This document shows, one piece after another, positions 6,701 through 44,937 of a stretch of DNA of 64,000 bases. Both the position numbers and the translations under genes were made by a program. The stretch's first letter is position 1, and each line of letters starts with the position of its first letter. The notes under the pieces are model-generated. The model was not told the origin of the DNA, did not search any database, and saw only the letters and a list, made by a program, of their open reading frames with translations. The DNA is from an uncultured Gammaproteobacteria bacterium (lineage in GTDB: Bacteria > Patescibacteriota > Microgenomatia > Levybacterales > UBA12049), in contig CAZEJU010000001.1 in the NCBI GenBank assembly GCA_964512695.1, positions 7,803-71,802 on the forward strand. The letters are read 5' to 3'.

Positions 6701-6715
6701 AGGAAAAAATAATAA

Positions 6716-7477: not shown

Positions 7478-7514
7478 TTTTCTAAGTTTAGCAGGAAAAT
7501 AGAAGCCTACTTGT

Positions 7515-23886: not shown

Positions 23887-24684
23887 ATGTTTGTGACCAT
23901 TATTAACGACTGTACAGATCATAACGTAATAGGAAGGCAACTAACCAGAGCAGCTGTCTTATTTTACGCGCCTGTTATTCCGGTTGGGGTTCACAACGAG
24001 TTAGAAGCTGCCGGAAACCTCATAGATGTTCTCGATGCTGCAGAAAAGGGAAAAGGAGTAATCATTCTGAATGTCGCACCCCGACATGGTAACGCGAAAA
24101 AGTGGCCGAATGGAACACCATTTGCGTACTTTAACGTCAATAATATACTTATTATAGCCACAATAGATGGCTACTCCTTGTCTCTTATAAAAAAACTCAG
24201 GATAATAGATTCCGTGAATCTCCTTGATATTCCTGATGTAGTTAACAGGATGCAAGAAGAACATGTCATTTCTTCAGAACTACGAGATCAAATCATTCAT
24301 ACGCAATTTCGAAGTTTCGAGTTCGCTCCCCGCGTAGCAAAGTGGCTGACCGAAAGAATAGAAATCCCCAGCACACCGTATGCTTTATCCCAAGTTCCTG
24401 ATGTACCAAAAGCTATATGGTATATCGATAATTTCGGAAACTGTAAAACCACACTCCTACCAGAAGATGTAAACTTCCAGGCAGGCAAAAAAGTTCATAC
24501 GGAATTAGGTGAGTTAGCTTGCTATAACAGATTAAAAGATGTCCCTGATGGAAAAACAGCTCTTATCATTGGTAGTTCAGGTTATAAAGATAAACGATTT
24601 ATCGAGTTAATAATCCAAGGTAAAAGCGCAGCACAGATATATGGTCTGCAAGTCGGATCATTAATCATAAATACTATTGGTTAA
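23887..24684 (+). CDS. DUF62-family protein (SAM hydroxide adenosyltransferase / SAM hydrolase-like, divergent)
   Basis: C-terminal hallmark IWYIDNFGNCKTTLL (compare iDxFGNxxTN), NVAPRHG (compare VVDPGVG) and TIDGYSL (compare PDNG). N-terminal motif is divergent (IINDC versus lTDFG). Confidence 0.55.
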   Translation: MFVTIINDCTDHNVIGRQLTRAAVLFYAPVIPVGVHNELEAAGNLIDVLDAAEKGKGVIILNVAPRHGNAKKWPNGTPFAYFNVNNILIIATIDGYSLSLIKKLRIIDSVNLLDIPDVVNRMQEEHVISSELRDQIIHTQFRSFEFAPRVAKWLTERIEIPSTPYALSQVPDVPKAIWYIDNFGNCKTTLLPEDVNFQAGKKVHTELGELACYNRLKDVPDGKTALIIGSSGYKDKRFIELIIQGKSAAQIYGLQVGSLIINTIG

Positions 24685-24794
24685 ATTCGACACTACAGAA
24701 ATAACATTTATGGGAATTAAGATTACCATATTAAAAAATAACAGAAAAATACCTCAATGCCTGGACTAAAGGAATCTCGCATTACCGGCTATTA

Positions 24795-25107
24795 TTGACA
24801 AGCTCAGGCTGATAAGGTAAAGTATGGAAAGAATCAAGAGTGATGGGGAGACCCCAGTCTGATCTTCCTTTTCGCCTTAGTAGATTTCTACTTCGGCTTA
24901 AAGAGCGATCTTACCGGGGCGGGAGTTTTGGCTTCATGATCCATCCGGCAACCCTTCGGTAAGTTCAAACAATGCTTGAACAACGAGCAGGGTGCCAAAC
25001 CCAACCCAAGAGATGTGCTACCGAGTACATCTTCGTAAAGGAGGATTTGATCCTGAGACAATCGAAGGATAAACTATGTATTACCTCTCTTTACGAGAGG
25101 TTTTTTT
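24795..25107 (+). promoter_or_regulatory. Promoter plus S-box (SAM-I)-like riboswitch with extra insert, antiterminator and terminator
   Basis: TTGACA(24795)-17-TAAAGT. S-box-like strings AUCAAGAG (24833), GGGAGUUUUGGCUUCAUGAUCCAUCCGGCAACC (24921..53), GGUGCCAAACCC (24991), AAGAGAUG (25008). UUUGGC (24927) is complementary to GCCAAA (24994), like the SAM-I pseudoknot. Terminator ACCUCUC-uuuac-GAGAGGU + U7 (25083..25107). GUAAAGGAGG (25035) can pair with CCUCUCUUUAC as an antiterminator. Confidence 0.5.
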
Positions 25108-25113
25108 ATTTAT

Positions 25114-26868: not shown

Positions 26869-27021
26869 CATTTGACAATATATTTGTAAATATAATTGAC
26901 AATATTACATATCTTTCAGTTAGTAATTATGAGTGCTGCCAATGCCTCTCAATACTTTTCGCACTCACTCACATCCTATAGTTGAATTTCTTCTCATATC
27001 TTTGTTACAATTTACCCCTAT

Positions 27022-28503
27022 ATGTCCCGAATACACGAATTACCAAGTATCCATACACTCTCTTCTACTGATGCTCAAAGATATTGGGATAAGTTACATC
27101 CAATAAAAGTTGTATCTCATGAGAGACCCCTGCAATACGGACATCCAGTTGAAATTCCTCCTAAACTCGCAGGAACTATTGGCAGATCAGCAAATCTCAT
27201 GGAAGAAATTGCGATAGATAGCATTATGCAACAAGGGGCCACTACATGGCTTGGAAATAATGCGGCTTCTTTCGCAGGTGATAGTCTTAACATACAAGAA
27301 ATCAACCACCAGCTCGAAGGTAGGCTTCTTCAAGGCTATCGATTACCTATTAGTTACGATGGAATGATAACAGTCTTTCGTGGAAGACCACATTATACAG
27401 TAGTGGAAGCACAATCTCTAGTTGCTCATGGCCCATGGATTCGGTCTATGCTTCAAGCAGCAGATAAAGATCCAGATGATCCATCATCATGGCAAGGGAA
27501 AGAAAATCCTACCCTCGTAGTTCAACAAATGAAAGACAATTTCGCGAAGGGTGAAGTTATAACAGTATTAGATACCACTCCACTTTCAGGTCCATTTATT
27601 CATGAACAAGTGGGTCTAGCGAAAGCATTAGGAACATCGGGAAGCGTGCCTATTTCTGCGCTTGATATCCAATTTAATCCTGAAATAGGTTATTTTCATT
27701 ACGGTTATGCAGTTGATACTAGAGGCTACCCTATACCAAATGGAAACGGCTTTTTAAGAACATCCGACCGAATACCAATCCGGCATGTGTTAAGCCGTAT
27801 GACGCAACCTGATCTGGATCATTTATACAATCTGGTCCGCGGTAACCCCCAACAAAGTGAACTTATACTCAAGTTCTTACGAGATGAAAAGATTAATTGG
27901 ATCTGGCATCCAGCATGGCAGTCCCTCATCGATAAATCGAGATTACCATATATCTGTAAAAAACTGGAAGAAAGACAAGAAAACGTAACACGCAATCAAT
28001 TTGTTCCGATTTTCGTAGCCGGTGAAACTCCACCCCTAGGAACGTATGTGCGTAAACCCGTAAGCAGCGTCCAAGGTGAAGGAGTAACAATTGTGCAAGT
28101 TAATGGCGTACCTCAACAAGTCGAAGAAGGCACAGTATACCAAAAGTATTTTTACCCGTATCCGTTTTCCATTCCCTTAGACGCAGAAATAGCACGGCAA
28201 TTTCCTGTAACACCCCATGCTCCCAGAAATGTCGCGTCTGGCTTCCAGGAACATTTCGGTTGGGGACAAACCACAACGCCTGCTAGTCTAGAATTATGTT
28301 ATATGGTGCCACCTTGGTGTAAAGGAGAACTTACGGGATATTTTATAGGGAGAGTAGCACCCAGGTATACAGGACCAGATTCAAGAAACATAACCCAAAC
28401 AAACCTCTCAAAAGCGCAAGCTGCGATGTACGAATATATCCGAGATCAGGATCATTGGAAAACACCCTTCGGCTTTTCCCCTGTAACTCTTCAAAAGACT
28501 TAA
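27022..28503 (+). CDS. ATP-grasp-like ligase (glutathionylspermidine-synthase-like flavour), 493 aa
   Basis: IWHPAWQSLIDKSRLPYI (compare the W..l.nKa.l..L motif of GspS-type pre-ATP-grasp proteins) and YVRKPVSSVQGEGVTIV (K-P-x-x-x-x-x-G-x-G-V ATP-grasp strand). Own TTGAAT-18-TACAAT promoter-like signal at 26982..27011. Confidence 0.45.
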   Translation: MSRIHELPSIHTLSSTDAQRYWDKLHPIKVVSHERPLQYGHPVEIPPKLAGTIGRSANLMEEIAIDSIMQQGATTWLGNNAASFAGDSLNIQEINHQLEGRLLQGYRLPISYDGMITVFRGRPHYTVVEAQSLVAHGPWIRSMLQAADKDPDDPSSWQGKENPTLVVQQMKDNFAKGEVITVLDTTPLSGPFIHEQVGLAKALGTSGSVPISALDIQFNPEIGYFHYGYAVDTRGYPIPNGNGFLRTSDRIPIRHVLSRMTQPDLDHLYNLVRGNPQQSELILKFLRDEKINWIWHPAWQSLIDKSRLPYICKKLEERQENVTRNQFVPIFVAGETPPLGTYVRKPVSSVQGEGVTIVQVNGVPQQVEEGTVYQKYFYPYPFSIPLDAEIARQFPVTPHAPRNVASGFQEHFGWGQTTTPASLELCYMVPPWCKGELTGYFIGRVAPRYTGPDSRNITQTNLSKAQAAMYEYIRDQDHWKTPFGFSPVTLQKT

Positions 28504-28528
28504 GCACACATACTCTTAAGTTTAAATA

Positions 28529-28675
28529 TTGACAATTTATAATTGATCTGGTAAGATTATAAGACAAATATGCAACATACGTTTAATTCTATTATTGTCG
28601 TCCTTCTCGTTACCCATTAATTGGGCGGAGGACTCGTGTTAAAAAACGTACCCGCTCAAAGAAGCGGGTTTTTTT
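28529..28675 (+). promoter_or_regulatory. Promoter plus Ile/Val/Leu-codon leader-peptide attenuator
   Basis: TTGACA(28529)-17-TAAGAT. Leader ORF 28570..28620 = MQHTFNSIIVVLLVTH (7 consecutive I/V/L codons). UUGGGCGG (28621) pairs with CCGCUCAA (28652) as antiterminator, versus terminator ACCCGCU-caaaga-AGCGGGU + U7 (28650..28675). Confidence 0.75.
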
Positions 28676-28696
28676 ATGTTTTAAAAGGAGAAATAT

Positions 28697-30556
28697 ATGA
28701 GTTCACATAAAGAATATGCAGGGCAAGCTGCTCTCAAATCCTTAGCTGAAAGATATATTAGAAGGTATGGCTTAAAAGCTGATTTTAATCCCGAAGAGAC
28801 AGGTGGAGTAATTTTCGCTCAAGACGGTACACCACTAAGGCAAGTCCGTGCTCCTTTCTGGAGAGCAGAAAAAGGTGCAAAGGGAACAGGCAGAAAAGAT
28901 ATGCCTAGAGTTTACACTGCTACAAATCCTGACCCGGATAAACCTAACTCAGGATTAGAATTAGAATTCCAAGCTTTCCATGCCATGACAGGAGAAATGG
29001 AACCAGTCATGGATGCAGACCACCCAGTACATCAGGGGTTATTGGAACACAATCGAAAAGCAAAAAATGGACACACTGAAAATAATGGAAATGGACTTGG
29101 AAACGGAAATGGGGTTAATGGATATGTTTTTGTAGAAGACGGCGCTGACTGGGACCATGACTTCCCAACTGGACCTAAAGAAGTAGGATTTAGCCCAGAG
29201 CTAACACGTCATACTTTGGAGGAAAACTTTCCTCCGAATGTAGATTCCGGAACACGAAACAGAGAGACATTATATGGTATTAGCACAGTTGTACAATTAG
29301 CAGAAGCAAATAACACACTTATCTCTCCGTTCTCGACTATACCGCATCGAGATATTACACAAATTGATACGAATCAACATCCATATGTCCAACGCATAGC
29401 GTTCGAACACATGGGTCCCGAAAAAGTTAAACACTTTACAGGTACTTCACTGCAAATTCACGTAGAAATCAAGGATTTAGAGTCAGCTTTACACGCTGCA
29501 AACCGTTGGCAGCTAGTTACACCTATTATGTATGCGGGAACACTTTCAGCACCTTTTATCGCAGGAGAAATAACACCCGATTTACAAGAACGGTATGGTC
29601 AAGTTCCCGACGTGGTTGGCGATCCACTAAAAGAAAGCACATTTGATACTATGACACAAGGACCCCATGAATCATATAGATATTATGGTAGATTAATAGG
29701 ATCACCTTCTGGAGGTGCAATGAGACAGCCTCTACCTGAAACATCTGAAGAATTTTGGTCTGCGGCTAATAATCTTCTAAAATCAGGAGAAAGTCCTTCC
29801 GTGGGTAGAGTAGCAGGACACCATGCAGATTTTCGTATTCGCCCTGACTTGGGACCGTATGGCACAATCGAGTTAGCAGTATTAGATACTGCCGGTGCGC
29901 GCATTCCAAATATCGTAGCCATTCAAGAATTCTCCAGAGCTTTGGGTTGGAAGTTACAGAGACAAGCAGGTAATTGGGAACAAATTATGGAAGATCCTCG
30001 TTTTAAATCGATATTCGGGCAAGCACCTTCTAAGGAAACATTCGAGACTGTTCACTGGAATACTATAGAGGTAGCAAAACATGGAAATAAGGCAATGATT
30101 ACTGGTATGGACGGAGAACAGCATTCTATAGCAGAGTTATGGAGTAAGTTAGTGGAATATGTACAAGAACCTATTGAAGAAACCGGTTATACTGGTTTAC
30201 CGGAAGGTATTATCGAGGTATTAGATAAAGCTTATCAAGACCCATCAGAACTATTTGATGTTTATAAAGACGAAAAAGGAGTTACTTCTGTCAAAGGATT
30301 CTATGAAACCGGAGTCGGAACTATGAGCCAGTGGGCCAGACAACGTGCAGAAGAGTTGAAAGCAAGAGGCTTAGCAGAAAAAGAAGCCATTATCGATACT
30401 ACACTTAATGTAGGCAAAAGCTTTCATGAACATGTAAAGTCAATGACACCCAAAGATCTTAATACTTTATATGTAAGCGCTAACAAGGATGTGGATAAAT
30501 CACCCCAATACAGCGCTAATGGTCAGAATCCATCATACCAAACCACTGCGTCCTAA
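28697..30556 (+). CDS. GCS2-fold carboxylate-amine ligase-like protein, paralogue B (619 aa)
   Basis: SGLELEFQAF, GTSLQIHVEIKD, GHHADFRIRPDLGPYGTIELAVLDTA (close to the GCS2 HWDVRP...T(I/V)E(V/L)RV.D signature). AAAGGAG SD 6 nt upstream. Confidence 0.65.
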   Translation: MSSHKEYAGQAALKSLAERYIRRYGLKADFNPEETGGVIFAQDGTPLRQVRAPFWRAEKGAKGTGRKDMPRVYTATNPDPDKPNSGLELEFQAFHAMTGEMEPVMDADHPVHQGLLEHNRKAKNGHTENNGNGLGNGNGVNGYVFVEDGADWDHDFPTGPKEVGFSPELTRHTLEENFPPNVDSGTRNRETLYGISTVVQLAEANNTLISPFSTIPHRDITQIDTNQHPYVQRIAFEHMGPEKVKHFTGTSLQIHVEIKDLESALHAANRWQLVTPIMYAGTLSAPFIAGEITPDLQERYGQVPDVVGDPLKESTFDTMTQGPHESYRYYGRLIGSPSGGAMRQPLPETSEEFWSAANNLLKSGESPSVGRVAGHHADFRIRPDLGPYGTIELAVLDTAGARIPNIVAIQEFSRALGWKLQRQAGNWEQIMEDPRFKSIFGQAPSKETFETVHWNTIEVAKHGNKAMITGMDGEQHSIAELWSKLVEYVQEPIEETGYTGLPEGIIEVLDKAYQDPSELFDVYKDEKGVTSVKGFYETGVGTMSQWARQRAEELKARGLAEKEAIIDTTLNVGKSFHEHVKSMTPKDLNTLYVSANKDVDKSPQYSANGQNPSYQTTAS

Positions 30557-30590
30557 CAAGTATCAACTATTGTTGTGATACAATAACAAC

Positions 30591-31676
30591 ATGATTCAAC
30601 AAGAAAGGCTTCTAAAAACATTCTTCGATCTTGTTTCAATCGATAGTCCTACAGGTGAAGAAGAACGCATTCGTAACGAACTCTCAAATCGTTTGAAAAA
30701 ACTTGGCGCTGAAACAGTGGAAAAAGATACCTATGGTAACCTCATAGCGAAATTCCATGGTGAAGGTGAACCGCTCATGATTAACTGCCATATGGACACT
30801 GTAGAGCCCGGTAGAGGCATAGTACCAATTATGAAAGGTGATAGAGTAGAAACCGACGGGAAGACAATTCTAGCGGGTGATGCAAAGGCAGGTTTAGCGA
30901 TTATCCTCGAAGCCTTAACTTCACTAAAAGAAGAAAATAAAAAACATGTACCTATCGAAATCGTCTTTACTGTAGAGGAGGAAACTGGACTTTATGGAGC
31001 TGTTAACCTCGACTATTCAAAAGTCTCCGCAAAAAAAGGATTTGTTTTTGATGGTTCAAAAGATCCTTGTACCTTAACCACATCAGCACCGGGATATTAT
31101 AGAGTCGATGTTACAATCATAGGAAGAGCGGCTCATGCGGGAGCCGAACCTGAAAAAGGTATTTCAGCTATTAAAATCGCTTCTGATATTATTACGAAGC
31201 TCGAGGTAGGCAGAATTGATGAAGAAACTACGGCAAACGTCGGTATTATAGAAGGCGGAAGCGCCCGGAATGCAGTACCAGAAAAAGCACATTTTAAGGC
31301 AGAAATTCGAAGTAGAAAGCTAGAAAAGCTTGAAAAACATGCAGGTCATTTCCAAGAAGTTTTTGAGGAAGCGATGAAGAAACATCCTGAAGCGAAAATA
31401 GAGATAGACATGCATTTAGAATTTAATCCATATATTTTCGATGAAAACCATCATGTTATTCAGCTTGCGAGTAAAGCGTTAAGCGAACTAGGACAAACAC
31501 CGAAACTTGCACCTTCGAATGGAGGATCCGATGTCAATATTTTTATTTCACACGATATAGAAACAGTGGCTGTAGGAATTGGCGATTATAATGCTCATAC
31601 AACCCGCGAATACGTCGTCATATCTGAAATAGTGTTAGGAGCTAGACTCTGCGAAAAACTCCTTGAGGCGAAGTAA
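30591..31676 (+). CDS. M20-family metallopeptidase (peptidase T / tripeptidase-like)
   Basis: SPTGEE, CHMDTVEPG, LAGDAKAGLA, EEETGLYGA, RAAHAGAEPEKGISA: M20 metal-ligand motifs. 34 nt after paralogue B, so likely the same operon. Confidence 0.75.
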   Translation: MIQQERLLKTFFDLVSIDSPTGEEERIRNELSNRLKKLGAETVEKDTYGNLIAKFHGEGEPLMINCHMDTVEPGRGIVPIMKGDRVETDGKTILAGDAKAGLAIILEALTSLKEENKKHVPIEIVFTVEEETGLYGAVNLDYSKVSAKKGFVFDGSKDPCTLTTSAPGYYRVDVTIIGRAAHAGAEPEKGISAIKIASDIITKLEVGRIDEETTANVGIIEGGSARNAVPEKAHFKAEIRSRKLEKLEKHAGHFQEVFEEAMKKHPEAKIEIDMHLEFNPYIFDENHHVIQLASKALSELGQTPKLAPSNGGSDVNIFISHDIETVAVGIGDYNAHTTREYVVISEIVLGARLCEKLLEAK

Positions 31677-31759
31677 ATTGGTATATTGCTAAACTGCTAA
31701 TTGTTACGTGAGAGTAACCATACAACAATACCCATATCAATAAATTTTCGCTACAAAAA

Positions 31760-32107
31760 TTGACACGTCATTAACCTCATGGTAGAATTACTATAACATA
31801 CGAATAACAGCGTTGATCCAGTATGGATGGGACTGGGGATTCTCCTTCATTAAAGTTACGCAAGGAGAGCGCTGGGTCTAATCAACCCCGGAGGCGAAAC
31901 CGTAAAAAGATCAGCAACATGTGTCATAGCTGCAGATAAGCACTGATTAAAAGCTGATTCTCGCTGATATAGAGCATGTCATGAATGAGAAGTCCTCCCA
32001 CGCCAAAGCTCCGGAGGATAAAACAAGGTGGCACCGTCCTTAAATAAACGTGGGACCCTTGTAAATAACTACAAAGTAATTTTGTGGTTGTTTACAAGGG
32101 TTTTTTT
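31760..32107 (+). promoter_or_regulatory. Promoter plus T-box-like leader (antiterminator bulge UGGC; specifier not resolved)
   Basis: TTGACA(31760)-17-TAGAAT. ACAAGG-UGGCACC-GUCC..GGAC-CCUUGU (32023..32062) is a T-box-type antiterminator with a 7-nt bulge. Its 3' strand is shared with a 14-bp terminator CCCUUGUAAAUAAC/GUUGUUUACAAGGG + U7 (32056..32107). Confidence 0.6.
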
Positions 32108-32108
32108 A

Positions 32109-33269
32109 ATGGTAAAAACTATGAAAGAAGGAGTTATTATACAAGTTGATCCGAGAATACCAGAGCCATATATAACATATATCCGGCAACGAAATGGGAA
32201 TGTCGGCAGAGATATAGCAGATCACCTTGGCCTACCCTATGTAGGAGACAGTCAGGGAGTACAACGTGCAGCTGATTATTATCCTGTACTTGCCAGAACT
32301 GTCACCAGAGAACATGCAAGAGTATTAGGTGCAGAAAATACAAGAGATTTCTATGGTCTTGCAGTTGAAGATTTAAATGTTGTGGGTAAATCTATACTCC
32401 ATCCTTCTATAAGCAGAAGACATCCTTTATTTCATAGAGAACAATTCGCACGAAAAGTCTTAGGTCAAACCCTTCCTGGTATAACCGGTTTCTCTAAAGA
32501 AGATTTATTAGCAGGGTATGAAAATGGTTACGCTGGATCACTGGATCATGCTTTAGATTACGAGCAGTATGGATTACGTGTTAAACTTCCAAATGAATCC
32601 GACGGCGTAGGACAATTTACTATACAAAGCAAGGATGATCTGGTTACTCTTCTAGAAGCTATTGAGGATAAAGATATCCACGAACAAGGACTGGTTCTGG
32701 AAGCTGATGTACAGAAACCTGAGACTATATCAGTCGGATTCGCGAGAATCGGTGATGAACAATTAAGTTTCATAGCCCAACAAAAAGATGCACGTGTGTT
32801 AGTAGATCATAAGGGCAAAACAATAGAGCAGAATAGATATGGTGGGGCATACGTCGTTGTGGCAAAAGGCCCTTTACAGTTACTATGCCAAGCCACGGAA
32901 GCAACTTCGCGTGAGAGATCTGCTGTAGAAAAAACACTGGCGTTTCATGAAGCCTATCAACGCATCTATGATCCTTTAGCTTCGAGATTAAGTTTCGATG
33001 TCATTTTCGGAGAAGGGAAAAACGGTCTCCCACTTGCAGGAATAAGTGACATTACTGGTAGGCTAGGTGGAACGTGTCCAGCACTCATGCAAGCTGCTGA
33101 AGAGTTCAGGAAAAACCCTTCTATTCAAATGGTAGGAACAGAAGTATCTCTTAATTATACTCCCCATGTACGATTTCCCTATGAAGATGAAGCTAAGGTG
33201 TATGTAGACCACCCAACACTCAGACTTACAGCAAGAGTAAACTCAAAACACAGAAGACTCGCAGCATAG
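32109..33269 (+). CDS. ATP-grasp-like protein (386 aa from the ATG at 32109)
   Basis: GLRVKLPNESDGVGQFTIQSKDDLVTLLE.. and ..GLVLEADVQKPETISVGFARIG.. fit ATP-grasp central-domain strands. I rejected the ORF-track start (32028) because it overlaps the leader terminator. Confidence 0.4.
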   Translation: MVKTMKEGVIIQVDPRIPEPYITYIRQRNGNVGRDIADHLGLPYVGDSQGVQRAADYYPVLARTVTREHARVLGAENTRDFYGLAVEDLNVVGKSILHPSISRRHPLFHREQFARKVLGQTLPGITGFSKEDLLAGYENGYAGSLDHALDYEQYGLRVKLPNESDGVGQFTIQSKDDLVTLLEAIEDKDIHEQGLVLEADVQKPETISVGFARIGDEQLSFIAQQKDARVLVDHKGKTIEQNRYGGAYVVVAKGPLQLLCQATEATSRERSAVEKTLAFHEAYQRIYDPLASRLSFDVIFGEGKNGLPLAGISDITGRLGGTCPALMQAAEEFRKNPSIQMVGTEVSLNYTPHVRFPYEDEAKVYVDHPTLRLTARVNSKHRRLAA

Positions 33270-33278: not shown

Positions 33279-33422
33279 TTGACATTACACATGGGCTATC
33301 CTATAATCATTTATATGATACGACAAGCAGTAAATTTCTTTTTCTTTTTTACCCCACTCGCGGGGAGGTAATTTCGTGATCACACGAAATACTCTATACC
33401 CCGCATAAGGCGGGGTTTTTTT
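33279..33422 (+). promoter_or_regulatory. Consensus promoter plus Phe-codon leader-peptide attenuator
   Basis: TTGACA(33279)-17-TATAAT(33302). Leader ORF 33315..33371 = MIRQAVNFFFFFTPLAGR, with its ATG only 7 nt after the -10 (leaderless). CCCC/GGGG (33352/33362) 1:2 hairpin. GCGGGG (33360) can pair with CCCCGC (33399), versus terminator CCCCGC-auaag-GCGGGG + U7 (33399..33422). Confidence 0.8.
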
Positions 33423-36930: not shown

Positions 36931-37152
36931 ATGTCTTCCGAAAAATATCATCATGTACATAAAGGAAAGATTGAGATTTTCATCAATAATTTTACAGGCG
37001 GAATTGCCTGGGGATTAGGAGCAAGTGTAGGTGTATCAATCCTATTTACGATTCTCGGTTTTATAGCAACTCAAGCAAATCTCGTTCCCTATATAGGAAC
37101 ATTTGTTTCACAAATTATCGACTTCGTGTTAAAACATAACAAACATTTTTAA
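36931..37152 (+). CDS. Small membrane protein
   Basis: 73-aa ORF with two hydrophobic helices (GGIAWGLGASVGVSILFTILGFIA..). Confidence 0.4.
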   Translation: MSSEKYHHVHKGKIEIFINNFTGGIAWGLGASVGVSILFTILGFIATQANLVPYIGTFVSQIIDFVLKHNKHF

Positions 37153-37163
37153 TAACTGCTGTA

Positions 37164-37296
37164 TTGACGAACTGTATGACTCATGGTATATTGCTCAAAT
37201 ATATGAAATCCACTTTTTTAGTTTGTTGTGTTACAACTCTGCTTTAAGGGGTTGTAGTTATCGTGGAATATGCACCCCGCCAAGCGGGGTTTTTTT
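37164..37296 (+). promoter_or_regulatory. Promoter plus leader-peptide attenuator with tandem Cys codons (specificity tentative)
   Basis: TTGACG(37164)-17-TATATT. Leader ORF 37203..37247 = MKSTFLVCCVTTLL. GGGG (37248) immediately after the stop can pair with CCCC (37275), versus terminator CCCCGC-caa-GCGGGG + U7 (37275..37296), directly abutting the gene's ATG. Confidence 0.55.
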
Positions 37297-38289
37297 ATGA
37301 GAAACTTATTAGAATTAGGAATTTTCGAAACATACGGAAATGGTGGAGGAGCAATTACCAAAGATAGAGTATCTCCTCCTATTTATCCAGTAGATGCTAA
37401 TTTAGGTGAATGGAGGATACTAGCAACTGATCATGAAAGAGAATTCCCGGGCGAGCATCTCGAACGTGCTTTTGAAGTGATAAAGCAATGGCAGGAAGTA
37501 TTTCCTCGGGAAGATACCTGGATTAATCGTGCGTATGGTATTCCGTCACCGATTATTAAACTCGATGCAACAATTACTAATAATGAATTACAGGTGTATG
37601 AAGTAGAAGATAGACCAGCAGGAATGGGTTATAGCGAATTAATAAATCCTGACTTACGAACAAATTTTGCTGATATTGTATCTACTTGGCCAGATTTCCG
37701 AGTCGTCGTTTCTCCTCAAAGATCTGGAAATGACGATCATTTATGGGCAAAGCCAGCAGAAGCAGATTGGCATGGTCTAGTTCTCGTCCGGGCAGAACCG
37801 TCTGAAGAAGAATTCCATGCATTACAGCGAAGATCCATAAGTACTCTGCTTACAGAAGGAGACAAATCGTATGGTGAAAAAATGGGTTTATGGAAAAGAG
37901 TTCATACAGCAGATGAGATAGATTTTTCACAAGGTTTTGTCGTCAAGCCCACCCAAGGAAGCAAAGGGAATGGTGTGTATGTATCTTTACCGAAACAATA
38001 CATGAAAGAACATGGGATCGACCCAGGTAGAAATGGCGTAGCTACTGCAGGGAAAATACGAGGTGTAATCGATACTGCAGCAGCAAATGGAGGAGTCTTC
38101 GTACAACAATATCATCCTCCTATGGAAACAGGTATCCCGACCCATCCCTGGGCAGTAAACCGGTTATTCTTCGGGTATGATATGCAAAATGGAGAATGGA
38201 GATATATAGGGGGAACATGGAATGCTCGAAATAATTTGAAAATTCATGGAGCTAGTGATACATTAACTGGCCCGTTAAAAACGGTATAA
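37297..38289 (+). CDS. ATP-grasp-like ligase (330 aa)
   Basis: GFVVKPTQGSKGNGVYVSL (ATP-grasp K-P-x-x-G-S-x-G-x-G-V strand), ..VFVQQYHPP... Start set at the ATG abutting the terminator U-tract. Confidence 0.5.
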   Translation: MRNLLELGIFETYGNGGGAITKDRVSPPIYPVDANLGEWRILATDHEREFPGEHLERAFEVIKQWQEVFPREDTWINRAYGIPSPIIKLDATITNNELQVYEVEDRPAGMGYSELINPDLRTNFADIVSTWPDFRVVVSPQRSGNDDHLWAKPAEADWHGLVLVRAEPSEEEFHALQRRSISTLLTEGDKSYGEKMGLWKRVHTADEIDFSQGFVVKPTQGSKGNGVYVSLPKQYMKEHGIDPGRNGVATAGKIRGVIDTAAANGGVFVQQYHPPMETGIPTHPWAVNRLFFGYDMQNGEWRYIGGTWNARNNLKIHGASDTLTGPLKTV

Positions 38290-38346
38290 AAAAAATTGAT
38301 TAGATTTTACTTCACTTACCCTCGGTTCGTAAACGTAAATGCTCTC

Positions 38347-38492
38347 TTGACGTCCAAATAGATATAACTCTATAATACAAAGTGTTCTATATGAATATCA
38401 TGAATAACAATGGAGCAGTAAAGAAGAACCTCTCGTAAGAGGGGTCTTTCTGTTGTCTGCACAATAGTACCCCTTACAGAAGGGGTTTTTTT
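38347..38492 (+). promoter_or_regulatory. Promoter plus Asn-codon leader-peptide attenuator
   Basis: TTGACG(38347)-18-TATAAT(38371). Leader ORF 38391..38438 = MNIMNNNGAVKKNLS (5 Asn in 15 aa). CCUCU/AGAGG hairpin over the stop codon. GAGGGG (38439) can pair with CCCCUU (38470), versus terminator CCCCUU-acag-AAGGGG + U7 (38470..38492). Confidence 0.65.
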
Positions 38493-38615
38493 ATGGATTT
38501 TTTGCTGAACCAATAGTTCTACTTAGAAATCCAAATCCTCCAAAAAGCGCTCTTCGAGCCGCAGTTCAAATGAACTAAAGCGGAAAGGAAGCTTAGGAGG
38601 ACAAAGCTTTACATT

Positions 38616-39899
38616 ATGAAAGAAGGACTAAAAGTATTATCACACTCATCTATAGAGGAATATCTATTCGATACTGATGTCGAAGACCGATATTATATTC
38701 CGTGGCGTGCAGCCGCAGAAGCAGCAGCAAGAATCGAACTAGGACAACAAGTTTTGACAATCCTTCCAAAACGTGAAGCTTTTAACGAATACCTCACCCT
38801 TTTACAAATGAAATTACTGGGAGGAAGAAGTATTCCAACGCTGTTTACACCTGATGAAGATTATCTTATGGATACTGATATTAAAAAATATCTTATGGAT
38901 ACTCTTCGTGGCAGATTTAACAGAAGTACCACTATTCATCCCTATCAAGCAACACCTGAATTTTATGATTGGGCGGGGGAGTTAGAACAGAAAGGCGTTA
39001 AAATTTACGCAGATAGAAAACGCAAAGACTTACGTGACTGGTGGGGACATAAAGGAGCATATCATCGATGGATAGATGATCTCGATACTCCCACTCAATT
39101 TGAAGGATTACATTTACCAATACCTCGAGGATACGTGGCTCAAAACCATGGAGAATTACTTGTAGCGAAAAAACTTCTACCAACTGACACTGTTGTGGCA
39201 AAACCAATTTTCGGAGCTGGTGGATTTCAAATAGAGTTCTTAGACGACGATAATATCGATACATATGAATGGCCTACCGACCCCACAACGGAAAAACCCA
39301 TGCCAGTTGCTGTACAAGAAAGACTAAGAATTGGTCGAGATGAATTCGGCGAACGTGTTTTTTCCTACCAGTTTGAGGGCCCACAACCAATGGGACGATT
39401 AACACGACAAATTATGGATCAGGAAACTGGGAAAGTCTGGAGTGGGAATAGAGTACCAGCAGATGTTACACCTGAGTTTGAACGAAGAGCAAAGGATGTA
39501 GTTCATACTTTAGTCATGAAAACAAAACCAAAAGGAGACGGGGGAGTCGATATAGCAGATGTAGATGGAGAACCAGTAATCATCGAAGTAAACGGAGGAA
39601 GGCCAACTGGCGCACATATGCCGAAACGATTTCAACAAGCCTTCGCGCCTGAAGCTCCACATTTCGTATTTCAGAAAGTAGAACCAAACGGATATTCACC
39701 ATTCGATATTTGGGATAGACTCGAAGGAGGAAACTTGCCTCGCACGAATGAAACTCTAGTATTTCAGCGTGAAAGACAACGCGGGGTTTTTCCATTAGTT
39801 TGGTTACCGAACTCTTGGGGAATGCTTGCAAGCTTCGGAGGATCATTCGAAGAAGCAAATAATCAGTTACTCGCAGCTCGTGATAGAATAGGCGTATGA
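38616..39899 (+). CDS. ATP-grasp-like ligase (427 aa)
   Basis: VVAKPIFGAGGFQIEFL, ..GGVDIADVDGEPVIIEVNGGRPTG.. (ATP-grasp C-terminal E-x-N region). AGGAGG SD. Confidence 0.5.
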   Translation: MKEGLKVLSHSSIEEYLFDTDVEDRYYIPWRAAAEAAARIELGQQVLTILPKREAFNEYLTLLQMKLLGGRSIPTLFTPDEDYLMDTDIKKYLMDTLRGRFNRSTTIHPYQATPEFYDWAGELEQKGVKIYADRKRKDLRDWWGHKGAYHRWIDDLDTPTQFEGLHLPIPRGYVAQNHGELLVAKKLLPTDTVVAKPIFGAGGFQIEFLDDDNIDTYEWPTDPTTEKPMPVAVQERLRIGRDEFGERVFSYQFEGPQPMGRLTRQIMDQETGKVWSGNRVPADVTPEFERRAKDVVHTLVMKTKPKGDGGVDIADVDGEPVIIEVNGGRPTGAHMPKRFQQAFAPEAPHFVFQKVEPNGYSPFDIWDRLEGGNLPRTNETLVFQRERQRGVFPLVWLPNSWGMLASFGGSFEEANNQLLAARDRIGV

Positions 39900-40966
39900 C
39901 TGAGAAAAGGGTAGTACAAATATTTTTCGATTTAGTAAAAATTGACAGCCCTTCTGGACATGAAGAGAACGTTTTAGAGTATATAGAAGCATATTGCAAA
40001 AAACTCTCACTAAATACACAGAGGGATTCTTATGGAAACCTCATCGTTAAAAAAGAAGGAGTAGGTGAACCACTACTTCTCTGTTCACATGCCGATACAG
40101 TAGAACCAGGGAAAAATATTCAACCACGAATAGAGAACGGAATTATAAAAAGCGATGGTACGACGATACTTGGTGCTGATAATAAATCGTCTATTGCAGC
40201 GATTCTCGAGGCTGTGAAACAATTAGTTGAAGAAAAAAAACACCATAGGCCTCTAGAGCTTGTGTTTACAAAATCTGAAGAAGTTGCTAGCTGGGGAGCA
40301 GTATATCTGGACTACAAACAACTTCAAGCAAAAGAAGGATATACGATAGATAACGCAAATCCTGTAGGAACAATTGTCTACGCGTCTCCTTTTTACTATC
40401 GTTTCGATATTACAGTATTCGGTAAAGATGCCCATGCTTCAAGACCGCATGAAGGAATTCATGCTTTAAAAATCGCTGCAAGCGCCATTCATAAAATAAA
40501 ACTTGGAAAAATTGATACAAATACACTTGCCAATATCGGCATGATCCAATCAGGCCATGTACGCAACACAATTCCAGGTTCAGTAGTGCTTATGGGAGAA
40601 GTACGAAGCTATTCCGATGAGAAAGCTCAAAGGTACTTAAACAAAATTATTGATACATTTAGAAAAACTGCAGAAAAAACGGGAGGATCTATAACGTACG
40701 AAACGCTGAAAGAAAATGCTGGGTATATATATAAAACAAATGATCCCTTTGTAAAAAAAACGATGCAGATTATGAAAAAGATTGGAGTAGAAACGAACTT
40801 AATTAAAACTCTGGGCTGTGCCGATGCAAATGTGATCCAAGAGCATGGAATTAAAATGCTCGACCTGGGCGACGGCTCACGCAGAGCGCATACACTAAAG
40901 GAGTCAATACCGGTAGCACAGTTACAAAGAGTCGTTGAGCTAGTATTAGCTCTTGCTGGAGCATAA
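39896..40966 (+). CDS. M20-family metallopeptidase (second copy, peptidase T-like)
   Basis: SPSGHE, SHADTVEPG, LGADNKSSIA, KDAHASRPHEGIHA. ATGA start/stop overlap with the upstream ATP-grasp gene. Paralogue of 30591..31676. Confidence 0.75.
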   Translation: MTEKRVVQIFFDLVKIDSPSGHEENVLEYIEAYCKKLSLNTQRDSYGNLIVKKEGVGEPLLLCSHADTVEPGKNIQPRIENGIIKSDGTTILGADNKSSIAAILEAVKQLVEEKKHHRPLELVFTKSEEVASWGAVYLDYKQLQAKEGYTIDNANPVGTIVYASPFYYRFDITVFGKDAHASRPHEGIHALKIAASAIHKIKLGKIDTNTLANIGMIQSGHVRNTIPGSVVLMGEVRSYSDEKAQRYLNKIIDTFRKTAEKTGGSITYETLKENAGYIYKTNDPFVKKTMQIMKKIGVETNLIKTLGCADANVIQEHGIKMLDLGDGSRRAHTLKESIPVAQLQRVVELVLALAGA

Positions 40967-41085
40967 AACCATACACTCTTCACCCTCCCTTTTCGAATTT
41001 ACGTGAACACTTCCCGAGGTTTGAATAGAAACCAACCTCCCAGGTTGGCAACTAGTAATTTGAGGACTTGCTTAAGGGAGCGTTT

Positions 41086-41204
41086 ATGCGATATACTTTC
41101 TTCAACATGAGTAAATCAGTTTTCGGAACTACCACTACAACAACCCTTTCCTAAGGGAGGTTGGCGTGGTATTATTTAACAACCTCCTTAATAGGAGGTT
41201 TTTT
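41086..41204 (+). promoter_or_regulatory. Thr-codon leader-peptide attenuator
   Basis: AGGGAG SD, then leader ORF 41086..41154 = MRYTFFNMSKSVFGTTTTTTLS (6 consecutive Thr codons). CCCUU/AAGGG 1:2 hairpin. AAGGGAGGUUG (41153) pairs with CAACCUCCUU (41180), versus terminator CCUCCU-uaau-AGGAGG + U6 (41183..41204). The terminator is nearly identical to that of the Met leader. Confidence 0.8.
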
Positions 41205-41322
41205 ATTGGGGAGAACACGTATCCGTCAGCTGAGGGATACCACGATAGAATCCCATGGATTATTGCATGGAATCCTATCGCCCCGGTGTACGTCAGGACT
41301 GAAAGCTGACCACAAATAACAT

Positions 41323-43107
41323 ATGACAAACGAACAAGAACTAAAAATAGGAGGACAAAAATCAGCGACGAAAGTTGATTTCGCTCATGCTGAGCATCCT
41401 TTAACCCATGCACGTCTTTATGAAGCAGTAGAAGAACGACGTGGTACCGTAGGTCCTGTAGGAGATGTTCCCAGAGCATATATAAGGGACTCTGCAACTG
41501 CGGCAATTATAGTAAGCACACCTTCAAAAGAGGTGGTTGCTGCTGTTCGATCACCTCTATGGATTCCTAGTGGTGTACGAAATGGAAGAGTAGAATTTGG
41601 TGGAAGACCAGATAAAGATCATATCGAATTTTCTTACTTACGTGAAACTGATTGGGAGTATGTAAAAGAATCTGCGAGGAAAAGATTAGACGCACTTAAA
41701 AAAGCCACAAAACTTAACGAATTTGTTGCTGAGCATGGAGGCTATCTCGGTATAGGAACAGAGCCGGAAGCATTTCTCCTTCATGAAGATGGCAGTGTCG
41801 TACAGATAAACGCTGGAGAGTCATTTTTAGGCCAGAGAGAAGACGCTCTGCCACCGATAGCGACACCCAGAGAGTATGCCCGCGCACGAGCGGAACTTAT
41901 TCAAAATCGAAGACAGCAATTACAGGCTGGTCAAATTGCCTTCGACGGCTCAGTTCGACCTACGGGGAAGATGAGCGAAACAAGAATAACCCAAGAAGGT
42001 GATGAAGCAATATATAATGTAGCTATCACGCAAGCGCTCCATACACGATACACCCATTGTGCAGATCCATTAACACGACAAATCATGGATCAGCTTGCTA
42101 AAACAGAAAACTATAGAGATTTTGACGAAATCTATAATCATGCTTCAACGATAACATACTGGGGTCCTCCCTCTGCATCGCATGCAGCTATAGGAATGCA
42201 TCAAAGACGCGAAAATGGGACAACCTTTGTACCAGAATGGGAAGCAGTAGCTCATGCAGATGTCATAAATAGCGATTTCGCAACTGCTGATGAACTACTG
42301 ATGATGTCAACGCCAGTCATATTCGGAGAACAACCTCAAGTTTTACATAAAGGTACATGGAGAAAACCACGCGACTATCGTCATTTTATGCGACATGTCG
42401 TTGACACTACCTATCCAGCACCTTTTGTCGGCTCGCCAGAAGCATTACGAGCAAATGTTACCGACAGTATACTCTCCGGCAGATCGCACACACTTGATAG
42501 ATCTGCATATACTGCAGATGTACATGGTTTATTAGTCCCTAACTATCATGGAAGAGTACGGATTAGACAAAAGGTTGATGTTACTCATAAAGGAGAAATT
42601 AAACAATCATGCCGTATAGAAGAAACAGGATGTTCACAGTCCGCATCTTTACCTGATGAATTGGCAAGAAATGCACTTATGCAGCTTAGAGCTGTTGCTG
42701 TCGACGAAGCCCTCGCAGCAGGTATGCATCCCTCTGAATTCTATAAAGAGAAATATCCGCATATGACAACTTGGCAAAAGCAGCAAGATATCGTACTCCA
42801 TGCAAATCTCTATGGTTTCCGACATCCTTTACCATCTGCTGTGATAATGGAAAATATTAGGCTTGTACGAGATATCGGTAAGAGATATCCTGTACTCGGT
42901 CTTCAAGCCGTACTCGCAGAAACACGCTTGAGAAATTTATTTGATGATCCAGCACGCTCTTTAGAAGTTTATGAACAAAAACCTATTGGTCCATTTAGCG
43001 AAGTTCTCCAGAATGAATTACATAATGGTACTTCACCTGTAGAACTCGCTCAAAAAGTAGCCGCTTACCAGGATACAGTAGCGGAAAAGATATTAAGAGT
43101 TCCATAG
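41323..43107 (+). CDS. GCS2-fold carboxylate-amine ligase-like protein, paralogue D (594 aa)
   Basis: YLGIGTEPEAFLLHEDG, SASHAAIGMHQ, NYHGRVRIRQKV...SCRIEETGCSQSA. Lies between the Thr attenuator and thrS. Confidence 0.55.
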   Translation: MTNEQELKIGGQKSATKVDFAHAEHPLTHARLYEAVEERRGTVGPVGDVPRAYIRDSATAAIIVSTPSKEVVAAVRSPLWIPSGVRNGRVEFGGRPDKDHIEFSYLRETDWEYVKESARKRLDALKKATKLNEFVAEHGGYLGIGTEPEAFLLHEDGSVVQINAGESFLGQREDALPPIATPREYARARAELIQNRRQQLQAGQIAFDGSVRPTGKMSETRITQEGDEAIYNVAITQALHTRYTHCADPLTRQIMDQLAKTENYRDFDEIYNHASTITYWGPPSASHAAIGMHQRRENGTTFVPEWEAVAHADVINSDFATADELLMMSTPVIFGEQPQVLHKGTWRKPRDYRHFMRHVVDTTYPAPFVGSPEALRANVTDSILSGRSHTLDRSAYTADVHGLLVPNYHGRVRIRQKVDVTHKGEIKQSCRIEETGCSQSASLPDELARNALMQLRAVAVDEALAAGMHPSEFYKEKYPHMTTWQKQQDIVLHANLYGFRHPLPSAVIMENIRLVRDIGKRYPVLGLQAVLAETRLRNLFDDPARSLEVYEQKPIGPFSEVLQNELHNGTSPVELAQKVAAYQDTVAEKILRVP

Positions 43108-43197
43108 GTACAAAGATGCAAGGTTCTACCGTAGTTCTCTGTAACATAAGATCTTCGTAACTATGCAACTATTCGCAGGTATGTTATAGTACAGCTT

Positions 43198-44937
43198 ATG
43201 GATAATAACGAAAAATTACAAAACTTACGACACTCAACAGCGCATTTACTTGCGGCTGCAGTCATGGAATTATGGCCTGATACGAAAAGAACAATAGGTC
43301 CTGCGATAGAAACTGGATTTTACTATGACTTCGATTTCGTAAAACCAATCTCAGTGGAAGACCTTCCTAAAATCGAACAAAAAATGCGGGAAATTCTTAA
43401 GTCATGGACAGGATTTATCAAAGAAGAAGTCTCAATAGAAGAAGCAAAAAAGAAAGTAGCAGGAAATGAATATAAACTCGAACTTATAGAAGAATTCGCG
43501 AAAGATAATAAAACCCTTACATTCTATACATCAGGTAATTATGAAGATTTATGTAAAGGCGGTCATGTAGAAAATCCAAAAATGGAAATCGGAGCATTTA
43601 AACTCCTCTCTCTCGCAGGCGCGTACTGGCGGGGAGACGAGAAAAACAAGATGTTAACTCGCATCTATGGTACTGCTTTTCCGACGAAACAAGAATTAGA
43701 AGAGTACCTAACCATGCTTGAGGAAGCGAAAAAACGAGACCATAAAAAATTGGGGAAGGAACTAGATCTCTTTATTTTTTCTCCTCTTGTAGGAGGGGGA
43801 CTTGCACTCTGGACACCCCGGGGGACAATTATTCGTGAAGAATTAGATAATTTTATTTGGCATATAAGAAAAAAGTTCGGTTATCAGAAAGTAACAATTC
43901 CTCATATTACAAAAAAAGATCTCTATGAGACATCCGGACACTGGGAAAAATTTGCAAATGAACTATTTAAAATCCAAACCCGTGAAGAAGATTTATTTGC
44001 GATGAAGCCTATGAATTGTCCTCACCATACACAACTCTACGCTTATAAACCTCGAAGCTACCGAGAGTTGCCACTACGTTATTCAGAAACAACTATGTGC
44101 TATAGAGACGAGCAAAGCGGAGAACTAGCTGGTTTATCCCGAGTTCGTGCTTTTACACAAGACGATGCGCATGTTTTTCTCAGAAAATCGCAAATAGAAG
44201 AAGAATTCTTACGAACTTGGGATATCGTAGATGATTTCTATAAAACTTTTGGCTTTGAGCTGAGAGTAAGGCTCTCACTTCATGATCCTGAACATATGGA
44301 AAAGTATCTAGGCGATGCGGGAATTTGGAAGGATGCTGAATCAAAAATTCGGGCGGTAGCAGAAAAAAGAAAAGCTAATACTTTTGAAGGAATTGGTGAA
44401 GCTGCAATGTATGGACCTAAACTAGACTTTATGACAAAAGATGCTCTTGGACGTGAATGGCAAGTAGCTACCATTCAACTTGATTTAAATCAACCAAAAC
44501 GCTTTGGCTTAACATGTATTAATGAAGAAGGAAAACAAGAAGACATCGTCATGATGCATTGTGCGGTTATGGGATCAATCGAAAGATTTGCTTCGATTTT
44601 AATCGAACATTACGCGGGAGCATTTCCACTCTGGCTTGCGCCAGTTCAAATCGAACTTTTACCAATAGCTGATCGCCATACAGAATATGCCCAATCAGTG
44701 TATAATCAGCTATCTGCAGCCAATATTCGTGTAAATCTTAATACCGAAAAAGCAACACTCCAGGCAAAAATACGTGAGGCTACTTTACAAAAAGTACCAT
44801 TTATGGGTATAATAGGCGATAAGGAAATTGCTGCAGAAGCGATTTCAGTCCGAACAAGAGAAGGAAAAGATGTCGGCCAACAACAGGTTGGTACATTTAT
44901 AACGGAGTTACAGGAAAAAATTGATAAAAAAGAATAG
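43198..44937 (+). CDS. thrS: Threonyl-tRNA synthetase (no N-terminal TGS domain)
   Basis: HSTAHLLAAAV editing-domain motif, class II motifs (..FRDEQSGELAGLSRVRAFTQDDAH.., ..GSIERF..) and an anticodon-binding C-terminus. TATAGT sits 7 nt before the ATG and there is no SD. Confidence 0.9.
   Translation: MDNNEKLQNLRHSTAHLLAAAVMELWPDTKRTIGPAIETGFYYDFDFVKPISVEDLPKIEQKMREILKSWTGFIKEEVSIEEAKKKVAGNEYKLELIEEFAKDNKTLTFYTSGNYEDLCKGGHVENPKMEIGAFKLLSLAGAYWRGDEKNKMLTRIYGTAFPTKQELEEYLTMLEEAKKRDHKKLGKELDLFIFSPLVGGGLALWTPRGTIIREELDNFIWHIRKKFGYQKVTIPHITKKDLYETSGHWEKFANELFKIQTREEDLFAMKPMNCPHHTQLYAYKPRSYRELPLRYSETTMCYRDEQSGELAGLSRVRAFTQDDAHVFLRKSQIEEEFLRTWDIVDDFYKTFGFELRVRLSLHDPEHMEKYLGDAGIWKDAESKIRAVAEKRKANTFEGIGEAAMYGPKLDFMTKDALGREWQVATIQLDLNQPKRFGLTCINEEGKQEDIVMMHCAVMGSIERFASILIEHYAGAFPLWLAPVQIELLPIADRHTEYAQSVYNQLSAANIRVNLNTEKATLQAKIREATLQKVPFMGIIGDKEIAAEAISVRTREGKDVGQQQVGTFITELQEKIDKKE

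Follow-up and report, generated by a model that had tools for sequence, protein, structure and literature searches.

A candidate lysine-codon transcription attenuator ahead of an ATP-grasp and M20 metallopeptidase operon in an uncultured bacterium

The 64,000-nucleotide stretch of contig CAZEJU010000001.1 analysed here (positions 7,803 to 71,802; hereafter the window) carries, at positions 38347–38615, a leader region followed by two genes that encode an ATP-grasp enzyme and an M20 metallopeptidase. The initial annotation had described this region as a leader-peptide attenuator, with a promoter, a short asparagine-rich open reading frame (ORF), alternative RNA pairings, a terminator, and downstream genes that overlap by ATGA. 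All of these features lie where it had placed them (Table 1). The layout is conserved in related loci, and the amino acid that the leader senses is probably lysine rather than asparagine.

The promoter is the top promoter-like site within positions 37000–41500. The leader ORF that follows has no Shine-Dalgarno sequence, and its ATG lies 14 nucleotides (nt) 3' of the −10 box, so that its 5' untranslated region would be about 7 nt long, assuming the usual distance to the transcription start. Downstream of the ATG, the RNA can form three helices, which are mutually exclusive alternatives. Helix 1:2 has 19 base pairs (38415–38434 with 38439–38460) and places the stop codon within its GUAA loop. 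The GAGGGG(U) core of region 2 (38439–38445) has two alternative partners, which are (A)CCUCUC in region 1 (38428–38434) and ACCCCUU in region 3 (38469–38475). The latter pairing, the 2:3 antiterminator, encloses a small hairpin. Region 3 can instead pair with region 4 to form an intrinsic terminator. The leader RNA folds better than 200 of 200 dinucleotide shuffles (z = −3.35). When the whole window was searched with Rfam at gathering score, only tRNAs were recovered and no family reached threshold at the leader; a search of 38200–38700 up to E = 10 returned chance-level matches only (best E = 0.26), with rimP (20 bits against 47) and PyrR (17 against 54) among those listed. Known RNA switches, namely the T-box, the lysine riboswitch and the PyrR site, were rejected as the class of this element, as none matched at gathering score.

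Terminator and ATP-grasp gene are separated by a spacer that is long only in the window and, in shorter form, in its relative L001; in L002–L006, the gene starts 12–25 nt past the U run. The spacer opens with a 7-codon ORF (ATG GAT TTT TTG CTG AAC CAA TAG) at the place where the structural gene of the relatives starts, and its AGGAGG is bracketed by an AAGCTT...AAGCTT inverted repeat.

The ATP-grasp protein has eight close clusters among 5.8 billion proteins. DNA was recovered for seven of these, and the leader lies upstream in six (L001–L006), whose ATP-grasp proteins are 50–80% identical to that of the window. Comparison of the leader among relatives, a check that the initial annotation had proposed, showed the same layout at all six: a promoter, a short ATG-initiated ORF, helices 1:2, 2:3 and 3:4, and a U run. 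Including the window, five of the seven ORFs have 15 codons, one has 16 and one has 24. The −35 box is of the TTGAC type and the −10 box of the TAnnAT type in every leader, and in each the ATG follows the −10 box by 6–14 nt without a Shine-Dalgarno sequence. This implies leaderless or near-leaderless initiation, with the ATG roughly 0–7 nt from the inferred transcription start. The full helix set is well formed in six leaders, the stop codon sits inside the loop of helix 1:2 in six, and six fold better than 200 of 200 shuffles (z from −3.4 to −5.5). Orthologs differ in whether the terminator or the antiterminator form has the lowest energy, as expected of a switch with two near-isoenergetic states. 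Folding was assessed by per-sequence folds and shuffles rather than by column covariation, because the MAFFT alignment of the leaders shifts L003 by one column within the helices.

The genes upstream of the leader differ between loci, being a divergent thrS in L002, murB in L003 and lysS in L004 and L006. These leaders are therefore not the terminators of one particular upstream gene. At L007 and L008 the ATP-grasp gene has no leader because it follows lysS by 47 nt. L010 is a genome-contig duplicate of L006, and scans of genomes and metagenomes yielded nothing beyond such duplicates of known loci. Since the same layout recurs in six orthologous loci, the element is a genuine, conserved leader-peptide transcription attenuator, and in this respect both anatomy and conservation bear out the initial description of the operon's control.

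Table 1. Features of the attenuator locus, its orthologous loci and the rest of the window. Positions are those of the window unless a locus is named; leader peptides in the first column are followed by a stop codon.
Feature	Position	Strand	Remarks
Sigma-70-type promoter: TTGACG 38347–38352, 18-nt spacer, TATAAT 38371–38376	38347–38376	+	11 of 12 matches
Leader ORF, 15 codons plus stop, MNIMNNNGAVKKNLS	38391–38438	+	ATG 38391, TAA 38436–38438
Asn run AAT AAC AAT, codons 5–7	38403–38411	+	outside modelled responsive zone
Proposed regulatory codons AAG AAG (Lys 11–12), then AAC (Asn 13)	38421–38429	+	Lys-Lys in 7 of 7 leaders, inside responsive zone
Region 1, 5' arm of anti-antiterminator (pause-type) helix	38415–38434	+	overlaps codons 9–15
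Region 2, 3' arm of helix 1:2	38439–38460	+	core GAGGGGU 38439–38445 alternatively pairs with region 3
Small internal hairpin CUGUUGU/ACAAUAG, enclosed by 2:3 antiterminator	38450–38467	+	counterpart in L001, L002, L003, L005
Intrinsic terminator: region 3 ACCCCUU 38469–38475, loop ACAG, region 4 AAGGGGU 38480–38486, U7 to 38492	38469–38492	+	hairpin alone −9.5 kcal/mol
Spacer of about 120 nt, terminator to ATP-grasp gene	38493–38615	+	AGGAGG at 38595–38600
ATP-grasp enzyme, 427 amino acids, predicted amino-acid/peptide-ligase type	38616–39899	+	PF02655, 37.9 bits against cutoff 23.2
M20 metallopeptidase, 356 amino acids, PepT-like	39896–40966	+	PF01546, PF07687; ATGA overlap with ATP-grasp gene
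Leader peptide, L001, MLNTNTNTTVKKNLS			
Leader peptide, L002, MIVKYAVNNSKKHLS			
Leader peptide, L003, MKSFIVVNVNKKKLR			
Leader peptide, L004, MRHQKSIQKLKKQAS			
Leader peptide, L005, MTMKLTVLVKKSKKNPLMRGFCLG			
Leader peptide, L006, MKNLHLGNKSKKQTLY			
Lysyl-tRNA synthetase pair, duplicate contig of L006	L010 4198–5808 and 8375–9868		
Met-rich leader MHYIKVENMMAMMMTS	23771–23821	+	
Ile/Val/Leu-rich leader MQHTFNSIIVVLLVTH	28570–28620	+	
Phe-rich leader MIRQAVNFFFFFTPLAGR	33315–33371	+	
Cys-Cys leader MKSTFLVCCVTTLL	37203–37247	+	conserved in L001 as MKSTGTICCTTTLF
Thr x6 leader MSKSVFGTTTTTTLS	41107–41154	+	
Trigger factor, short, 305 amino acids	18352–19269		
Archaeal-type phosphoenolpyruvate carboxylase	21555–23063		PF14010
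ThrS, 579 amino acids	43198–44937		begins at editing-domain motif; apparently without N-terminal TGS domain
Fused archaeal-type phosphopantetheine adenylyltransferase and GTP-dependent dephospho-CoA kinase	L010 1335–2327		

The codons of the leader ORFs are conserved very unevenly. Codons 2–10 have diverged almost wholly, while ORF length and frame are kept. Tandem lysine codons are present in all seven leaders, as AAG AAG in six and AAG AAA in L002. They stand at codons 11–12, 30 nt from the ATG, in six leaders, and L005 has lysine at codons 10–11 and 13–14. AAG is the minor lysine codon of the window's genes, accounting for 22% of lysine codons (232 against 829 AAA). Asparagine, by comparison, occurs 5, 4, 2, 2, 2, 1 and 0 times per leader. 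In the window leader itself, 5 of 14 codons specify asparagine against a frequency of 4.2% in the window (binomial P = 2e-4), and over all seven leaders the count is 16 of 108 (P = 1e-5). In the five more distant leaders, measured against the window's own usage, lysine makes up 20 of 80 codons (P = 4e-7) and asparagine 7 of 80 (P = 0.05).

The position of the lysine codons relative to the helices was assessed by folding the transcript, cut before region 4, with a ribosome masking −15 to +7..+16 nt around the A-site codon, and reading out whether region 3 was paired upstream. Three further attenuators of the window, the Thr, Met and Ile/Val/Leu leaders described below, served as controls. When the 3' boundary is set at +7 to +10, the modelled zone of response matches the regulatory run in each of them (Thr, codons 8–13; Met, 9–14; Ile/Val/Leu, 8–14). 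In the window leader, the same settings release the antiterminator solely for stalls at codons 9–14 (A V K K N L). A ribosome stalled at K11 or K12 gives an antiterminator probability of 0.92–0.96. Stalls at N5–N7 give 0.05–0.18 under these settings and 0.04–0.18 overall, against 0.05 with no ribosome at all; the one exception is N7, which reaches 0.71 at +16, the boundary in poorest agreement with the controls. The lysine pair falls within the responsive zone in all seven leaders. An alternative model, in which the full-length transcript was folded at equilibrium with a masked ribosome, was discarded: it allowed a pairing between regions 1 and 4 that has no kinetic relevance, and it fitted the controls poorly.

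Gene neighbourhoods also point to lysine. Class II lysyl-tRNA synthetase (LysRS) genes scoring above the TIGR00499 cutoff adjoin the ATP-grasp gene in L004, L006, L007/L008 and L013, a distant-homolog locus. At L006, two class II LysRS genes (2216–3826 and 6393–7886; 39% identical) flank the ATP-grasp and M20 genes, one of them 12 nt after M20. At L005, the gene after M20 (2655–3731) encodes a class I LysRS (PF01921, E = 9e-92). The occurrence of two non-homologous types of LysRS in the slot after M20 is a strong linkage in these relatives and suggests a functional tie to lysine. Three loci (L004, L006 and L008) also contain a linked gene matching the amino-acid-kinase family, and the copy tested (L010) scores as an aspartate kinase. 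Lysine and threonine are the two products of the aspartate-kinase branch point, and some kinase genes here have leaders that mix the codons of both: MNLELKTKKTKTLQ precedes the aspartate-kinase gene in L004 (444–542), and MDLILKNTKKATKTLPLG the PF00696-family gene in L008 (2150 to about 2265; also in L007, from 5300). Each is followed by a stop codon and then a terminator. Lysine codons thus appear, from these sequences, to serve as regulatory codons elsewhere in the lineage. No asparagine gene (asnS, asnA, asnB or gatCAB) is linked at any locus examined.

Other genes lie close to the LysRS genes. A protein of 210–222 amino acids is encoded directly upstream of lysS in three lineages (L010 3508–4140, L004 1616–2257, L007 1812–2480). 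It has no Pfam match, and the L010 copy has no match in NCBIfam; tblastn of the window for this protein and for aspartate kinase found neither. Locus L013 (1756–9858) contains, in order, an Orn/Lys/Arg decarboxylase gene in reverse orientation, LysRS and, 3 nt behind it, the ATP-grasp gene, then a radical SAM/SPASM protein, a DapE/ArgE-like M20, a PepT-like M20 and RelA/SpoT.

We consider it probable, though well short of certain, that the window element is a ribosome-mediated transcription attenuator whose signal is the level of charged tRNA-Lys. Transcription would begin a few nt upstream of the 15-codon ORF, and translation would start in nearly leaderless fashion, without a Shine-Dalgarno sequence. 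With ample Lys-tRNA, the ribosome would reach the UAA in the loop of helix 1:2 and cover region 2, or else depart and allow helix 1:2 to re-form; by either route, region 3 would pair with region 4 and RNA polymerase would terminate at the U run (38492). Should Lys-tRNA run short, the ribosome would stall at AAG AAG and hold region 1 open, so that GAGGGGU could pair with ACCCCUU. No terminator would then form, and the ATP-grasp ligase and M20 hydrolase, joined in relatives by the downstream LysRS, would be transcribed. The operon would in this way serve the supply of lysine.

Several observations weigh against sensing of lysine. The window leader has only two lysine codons, while its sibling leaders have five to seven regulatory codons each. 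The AAGAAG hexamer also pairs with CUUUCU in helix 1:2, and RNA structure alone could add to its conservation. Asparagine is in true excess in the leaders of the window and L001 (9 of 28 codons), which lysine sensing does not explain, and Asn 13 of the window leader falls inside the responsive zone. The leader of L004 has weak 1:2 and terminator helices (z = −1.6). The comparison comprises seven leaders, two of them from close relatives, and the folding model approximates a kinetic process by an equilibrium one. No Shine-Dalgarno sequence marks the start of the leader ORF, and the transcription start is an inferred one. Finally, tblastn with LysRS found no lysS within the 64-kb window.

Part of this evidence would be accommodated by a dual or aspartate-family attenuator, in which lysine and asparagine codons (and threonine codons in L001) are all regulatory and the operon answers several aspartate-derived shortages. 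Asparagine does lie in the responsive zone of six of the seven leaders (window N13; L001 N5, N7 and N13; L002 N8–N9; L003 N8 and N10; L006 N8; L005 N15) and is enriched over the seven together, and the Lys+Thr kinase leaders of relatives show that mixed-codon leaders exist in the lineage. However, the leader of L004 has no asparagine at all, and the excess is marginal in the five distant leaders. Of the five asparagine codons of the window, only N13 is in the zone at boundaries of +7 to +13, with N7 joining at +16, and the genes of asparagine metabolism named above are absent from the neighbourhoods. The A-rich early codons may merely keep a near-leaderless 5' end unstructured. Sensing of several amino acids is consequently unlikely.

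The leader might instead lack amino-acid specificity altogether, with the ORF reporting translation capacity or ribosome availability, or with a protein or small molecule switching the hairpins without translation. The missing Shine-Dalgarno sequence and the presence of just two candidate regulatory codons would suit such a device, as would a weak likeness to PyrR-type and rimP-type Rfam leaders (E = 7.7 and 0.84, respectively, both far under gathering scores). Yet ORF length and frame are conserved while codons 2–10 diverge, the stop codon keeps its place in the loop of helix 1:2 in six of seven leaders, and siblings of the same architecture bear unmistakable Thr, Met, Phe and Ile/Val/Leu runs. 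As no Rfam family reaches threshold either, an unspecific switch is improbable.

The initial annotation had taken asparagine as the sensed amino acid, with stalling at the NNN run (codons 5–7) giving readthrough. Five asparagines in 15 codons, three of them consecutive, are indeed unexpected (P = 2e-4), and the window shares both N5 and N7 with L001 although the codons around them have changed, one of the two with a synonymous AAT to AAC change. This choice is nevertheless unsupported on three counts. Asparagine varies between none and five per leader against an invariant Lys-Lys; the NNN run lies outside the stall zone, where a ribosome leaves helix 1:2 intact at +7 to +13 and the antiterminator stays at its no-ribosome level; and the gene linkage is entirely to lysine, through LysRS and aspartate kinase. 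The annotation's own caveat on stall geometry was well placed, since the NNN run is some 16–18 nt upstream of the region 1 core, whereas the regulatory runs of all five siblings directly adjoin region 1. A purely asparagine-specific attenuator is thus very improbable. A chance origin, in which the ORF would be accidental and the hairpin would simply terminate the upstream 330-amino-acid gene (end at 38289, with no other terminator ahead of 38469), is hardly credible given the strong promoter between that gene and the hairpins and the same leader beside unrelated upstream genes in L002, L003 and L004/L006.

The families of the two controlled enzymes offer some indication of their chemistry. The AlphaFold model of the ATP-grasp protein (mean predicted confidence, pLDDT, 83) has as its closest solved folds in Foldseek BesA (8yi6, E 3e-16), a Streptomyces ATP-grasp peptide ligase (8ynd) and the ATP-grasp protein 3wvq, with PurK and biotin carboxylases ranking behind these. 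A fold nearest to BesA and peptide ligases predicts an enzyme of the amino-acid or peptide ligase type. The likeness is one of fold (TM-scores of about 0.63–0.68), since sequence identity to the three is 14–16%, and the window family differs from them in being coupled to hydrolases. A sequence search of the PDB gave marginal ATP-grasp matches only. The M20 protein scores 297.6 bits on TIGR01883 (PepT-like) against a cutoff of 274.25.

A profile search extended the ATP-grasp family to about 240 clusters. Amidohydrolase domains are fused to the members P0012, P0014, P0016 and P0019, an AstE/AspA-type deacylase gene follows a distant member at L015, and L013 has two M20 genes. With M20, fused amidohydrolase and AstE/AspA-type partners, a ligase together with a metal-dependent hydrolase appears to recur as a module. 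Upstream of the distant homolog P0013, L014 carries (183–320) the short ORF MQNEFTNFIIARRRGVHIQRIPKFWCS, ended by a stop codon, with three arginine codons (CGT CGT CGC) and a GC-rich terminator. This leader may be an arginine-specific counterpart, which hints that leader and specificity co-vary across the family. Profile comparison of the family with other attenuator-controlled proteins of the window (of 619 and 330 amino acids, and DUF3182) found no relation.

The initial annotation had likened the ligase and M20 pair to LysX and LysK, which act with the carrier protein LysW. As a statement of membership, this did not hold. No LysX model of NCBIfam matches the ATP-grasp protein, whose one match there is a weak one to MptN (17 bits, E = 0.002, the cutoff being 350). 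The M20 protein is far below the LysK-type cutoffs (NF003367, 58.9 bits against 363; TIGR01902, 92.8 against 163.1), its best model being the PepT-like TIGR01883. No LysW-like carrier with an ...EDWGE C-terminus was found by a six-frame regular expression over the window and all loci, which is a simple pattern rather than a profile search. The two systems share an ATP-grasp ligase and an M20 hydrolase in a lysine context, with an amino-acid kinase gene nearby in three relatives; they differ in that the kinase in L010 scores as an aspartate kinase and the window M20 is PepT-like. The lysine chemistry at which the comparison hinted nonetheless appears right, on other grounds. Our best guess is that the pair forms or releases lysine via an amide-linked intermediate.

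The Lys leader is not alone. Five further attenuators of the same build lie on the + strand of the window, each with a promoter, an ORF of 14–18 codons, helices and a terminator, making at least six in total, and the majority of the five precede genes without a family match. The gene after the Met leader (23887–24684) has the C-terminal domain of S-adenosylmethionine (SAM) hydroxide adenosyltransferase (PF20257). Enzymes of this family convert SAM to adenosine and methionine; if the gene product cleaves SAM in this manner, a shortage of methionine would switch on an enzyme that liberates this amino acid. Next in line after the Ile/Val/Leu leader, at 28697–31676, are a 619-amino-acid protein without a family match and then an M20 paralog (30591–31676; 37% identity to the M20 of the Lys operon), so that the pairing of an unmatched enzyme with M20 is repeated under another amino-acid leader. 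After the Thr leader (41323–44937) come a 594-amino-acid protein without a family match and, 90 nt later, thrS. A paralog of the 594-amino-acid protein (25114–26868; 584 amino acids, 26% identity) lies behind a structured leader of about 270 nt with a terminator at 25083–25101.

Two longer leaders carry T-box-like motifs and end in a terminator. One (55812–56331, motif AGGTGGTACCACGG near 56121) precedes a 459-amino-acid ORF and tyrS, and the other (31761–32110, motif GGTGGCACCG near 32028) precedes a DUF3182 gene. The Rfam T-box model called neither, the DUF3182 leader being searched at gathering score and at E < 0.1 (24700–32130) and the tyrS leader at gathering score only. These leaders are among several aspects of gene content that are atypical for Gammaproteobacteria and make that label doubtful; others are listed at the end of Table 1.

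Taken together, the leaders allow a broader but tentative proposal. The ATP-grasp ligase and M20 hydrolase could be an unrecognised lysine-supply module, working by salvage from an amide-linked conjugate or by a ligase-protected route, and could be one unit of a regulon in which an attenuator for each amino acid (Met, Ile/Val/Leu, Phe, Cys, Lys, Thr), or a T-box-like leader, drives a dedicated and mostly uncharacterised enzyme, often beside the matching aminoacyl-tRNA synthetase. If this possibility proved true, the leaders could be used directly to infer which amino acid is handled by several protein families without a Pfam or NCBIfam match. Read as labels, the attenuators tie the ATP-grasp family, in its eight close clusters, and its hydrolase partner to lysine, and tie unmatched neighbouring genes to Thr, Phe, Cys and Ile/Val/Leu, which provides testable hypotheses for unannotated enzymes. 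The set also hints at how the organism copes with shortage of single amino acids. In this sense, the wider group of attenuators before uncharacterised enzymes is a more interesting lead than the Lys switch itself.

Leader-peptide attenuation is a textbook mechanism, with examples for Trp, His, Phe, Leu, Thr, Ile/Val and, in mycobacteria, Cys; lysine genes are instead known to be under riboswitch and T-box control. Full-text literature searches found no description of a Lys-codon or Asn-codon attenuator, and searches on ATP-grasp, LysRS and M20 neighbourhoods and on attenuation in Patescibacteria returned nothing relevant. The closest parallel in layout is trpL of Escherichia coli, in which two tandem regulatory codons are likewise followed by three codons and a stop (WW-R-T-S-stop, against KK-N-L-S-stop in the window), and in which helices 1:2, 2:3 and 3:4 are arranged in the same way, 3:4 being the intrinsic terminator. 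The window element differs in that its codons specify lysine, its ORF is near-leaderless and has no Shine-Dalgarno sequence, and the regulated genes are no canonical biosynthetic operon. The E. coli pheM-pheST system resembles the Lys-leader operons of L005 and L006, which end in LysRS, in that attenuation controls a synthetase operon, and thrL, with its Thr and Ile codons, combines two kinds of regulatory codon as do the Lys+Thr leaders of the aspartate kinases. Both respond to other amino acids, and the operon of the window contains no synthetase gene. The lysine riboswitch (L-box, RF00168) and the T-box control of lysS/lysK in Firmicutes also switch lysine genes on by terminator readthrough when Lys or Lys-tRNA is short. 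In contrast to these, the window element would sense the shortage via a translating ribosome, and it has no Rfam match at gathering score.

The mechanism itself is thus of the classical trpL type; what would set the element apart are the amino acid sensed, the nearly leaderless leader ORF and the non-canonical genes under control. The existence, in an uncultured lineage, of a nearly leaderless attenuator based on Lys codons would widen the range of attenuation, which a 2010 survey placed, as then known, in Proteobacteria and Actinobacteria only, apart from its own new cases in Firmicutes (PMC2965389). Leaderless initiation has a precedent in the polycysteine short ORFs of mycobacteria, whose codon content makes the downstream operon answer to one amino acid (bioRxiv 10.1101/834739). 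The window element is similar to these in being a leaderless or nearly leaderless short ORF, but the mycobacterial ORFs are cysteine-specific, whereas the leader described here is joined to a classical three-helix terminator switch.

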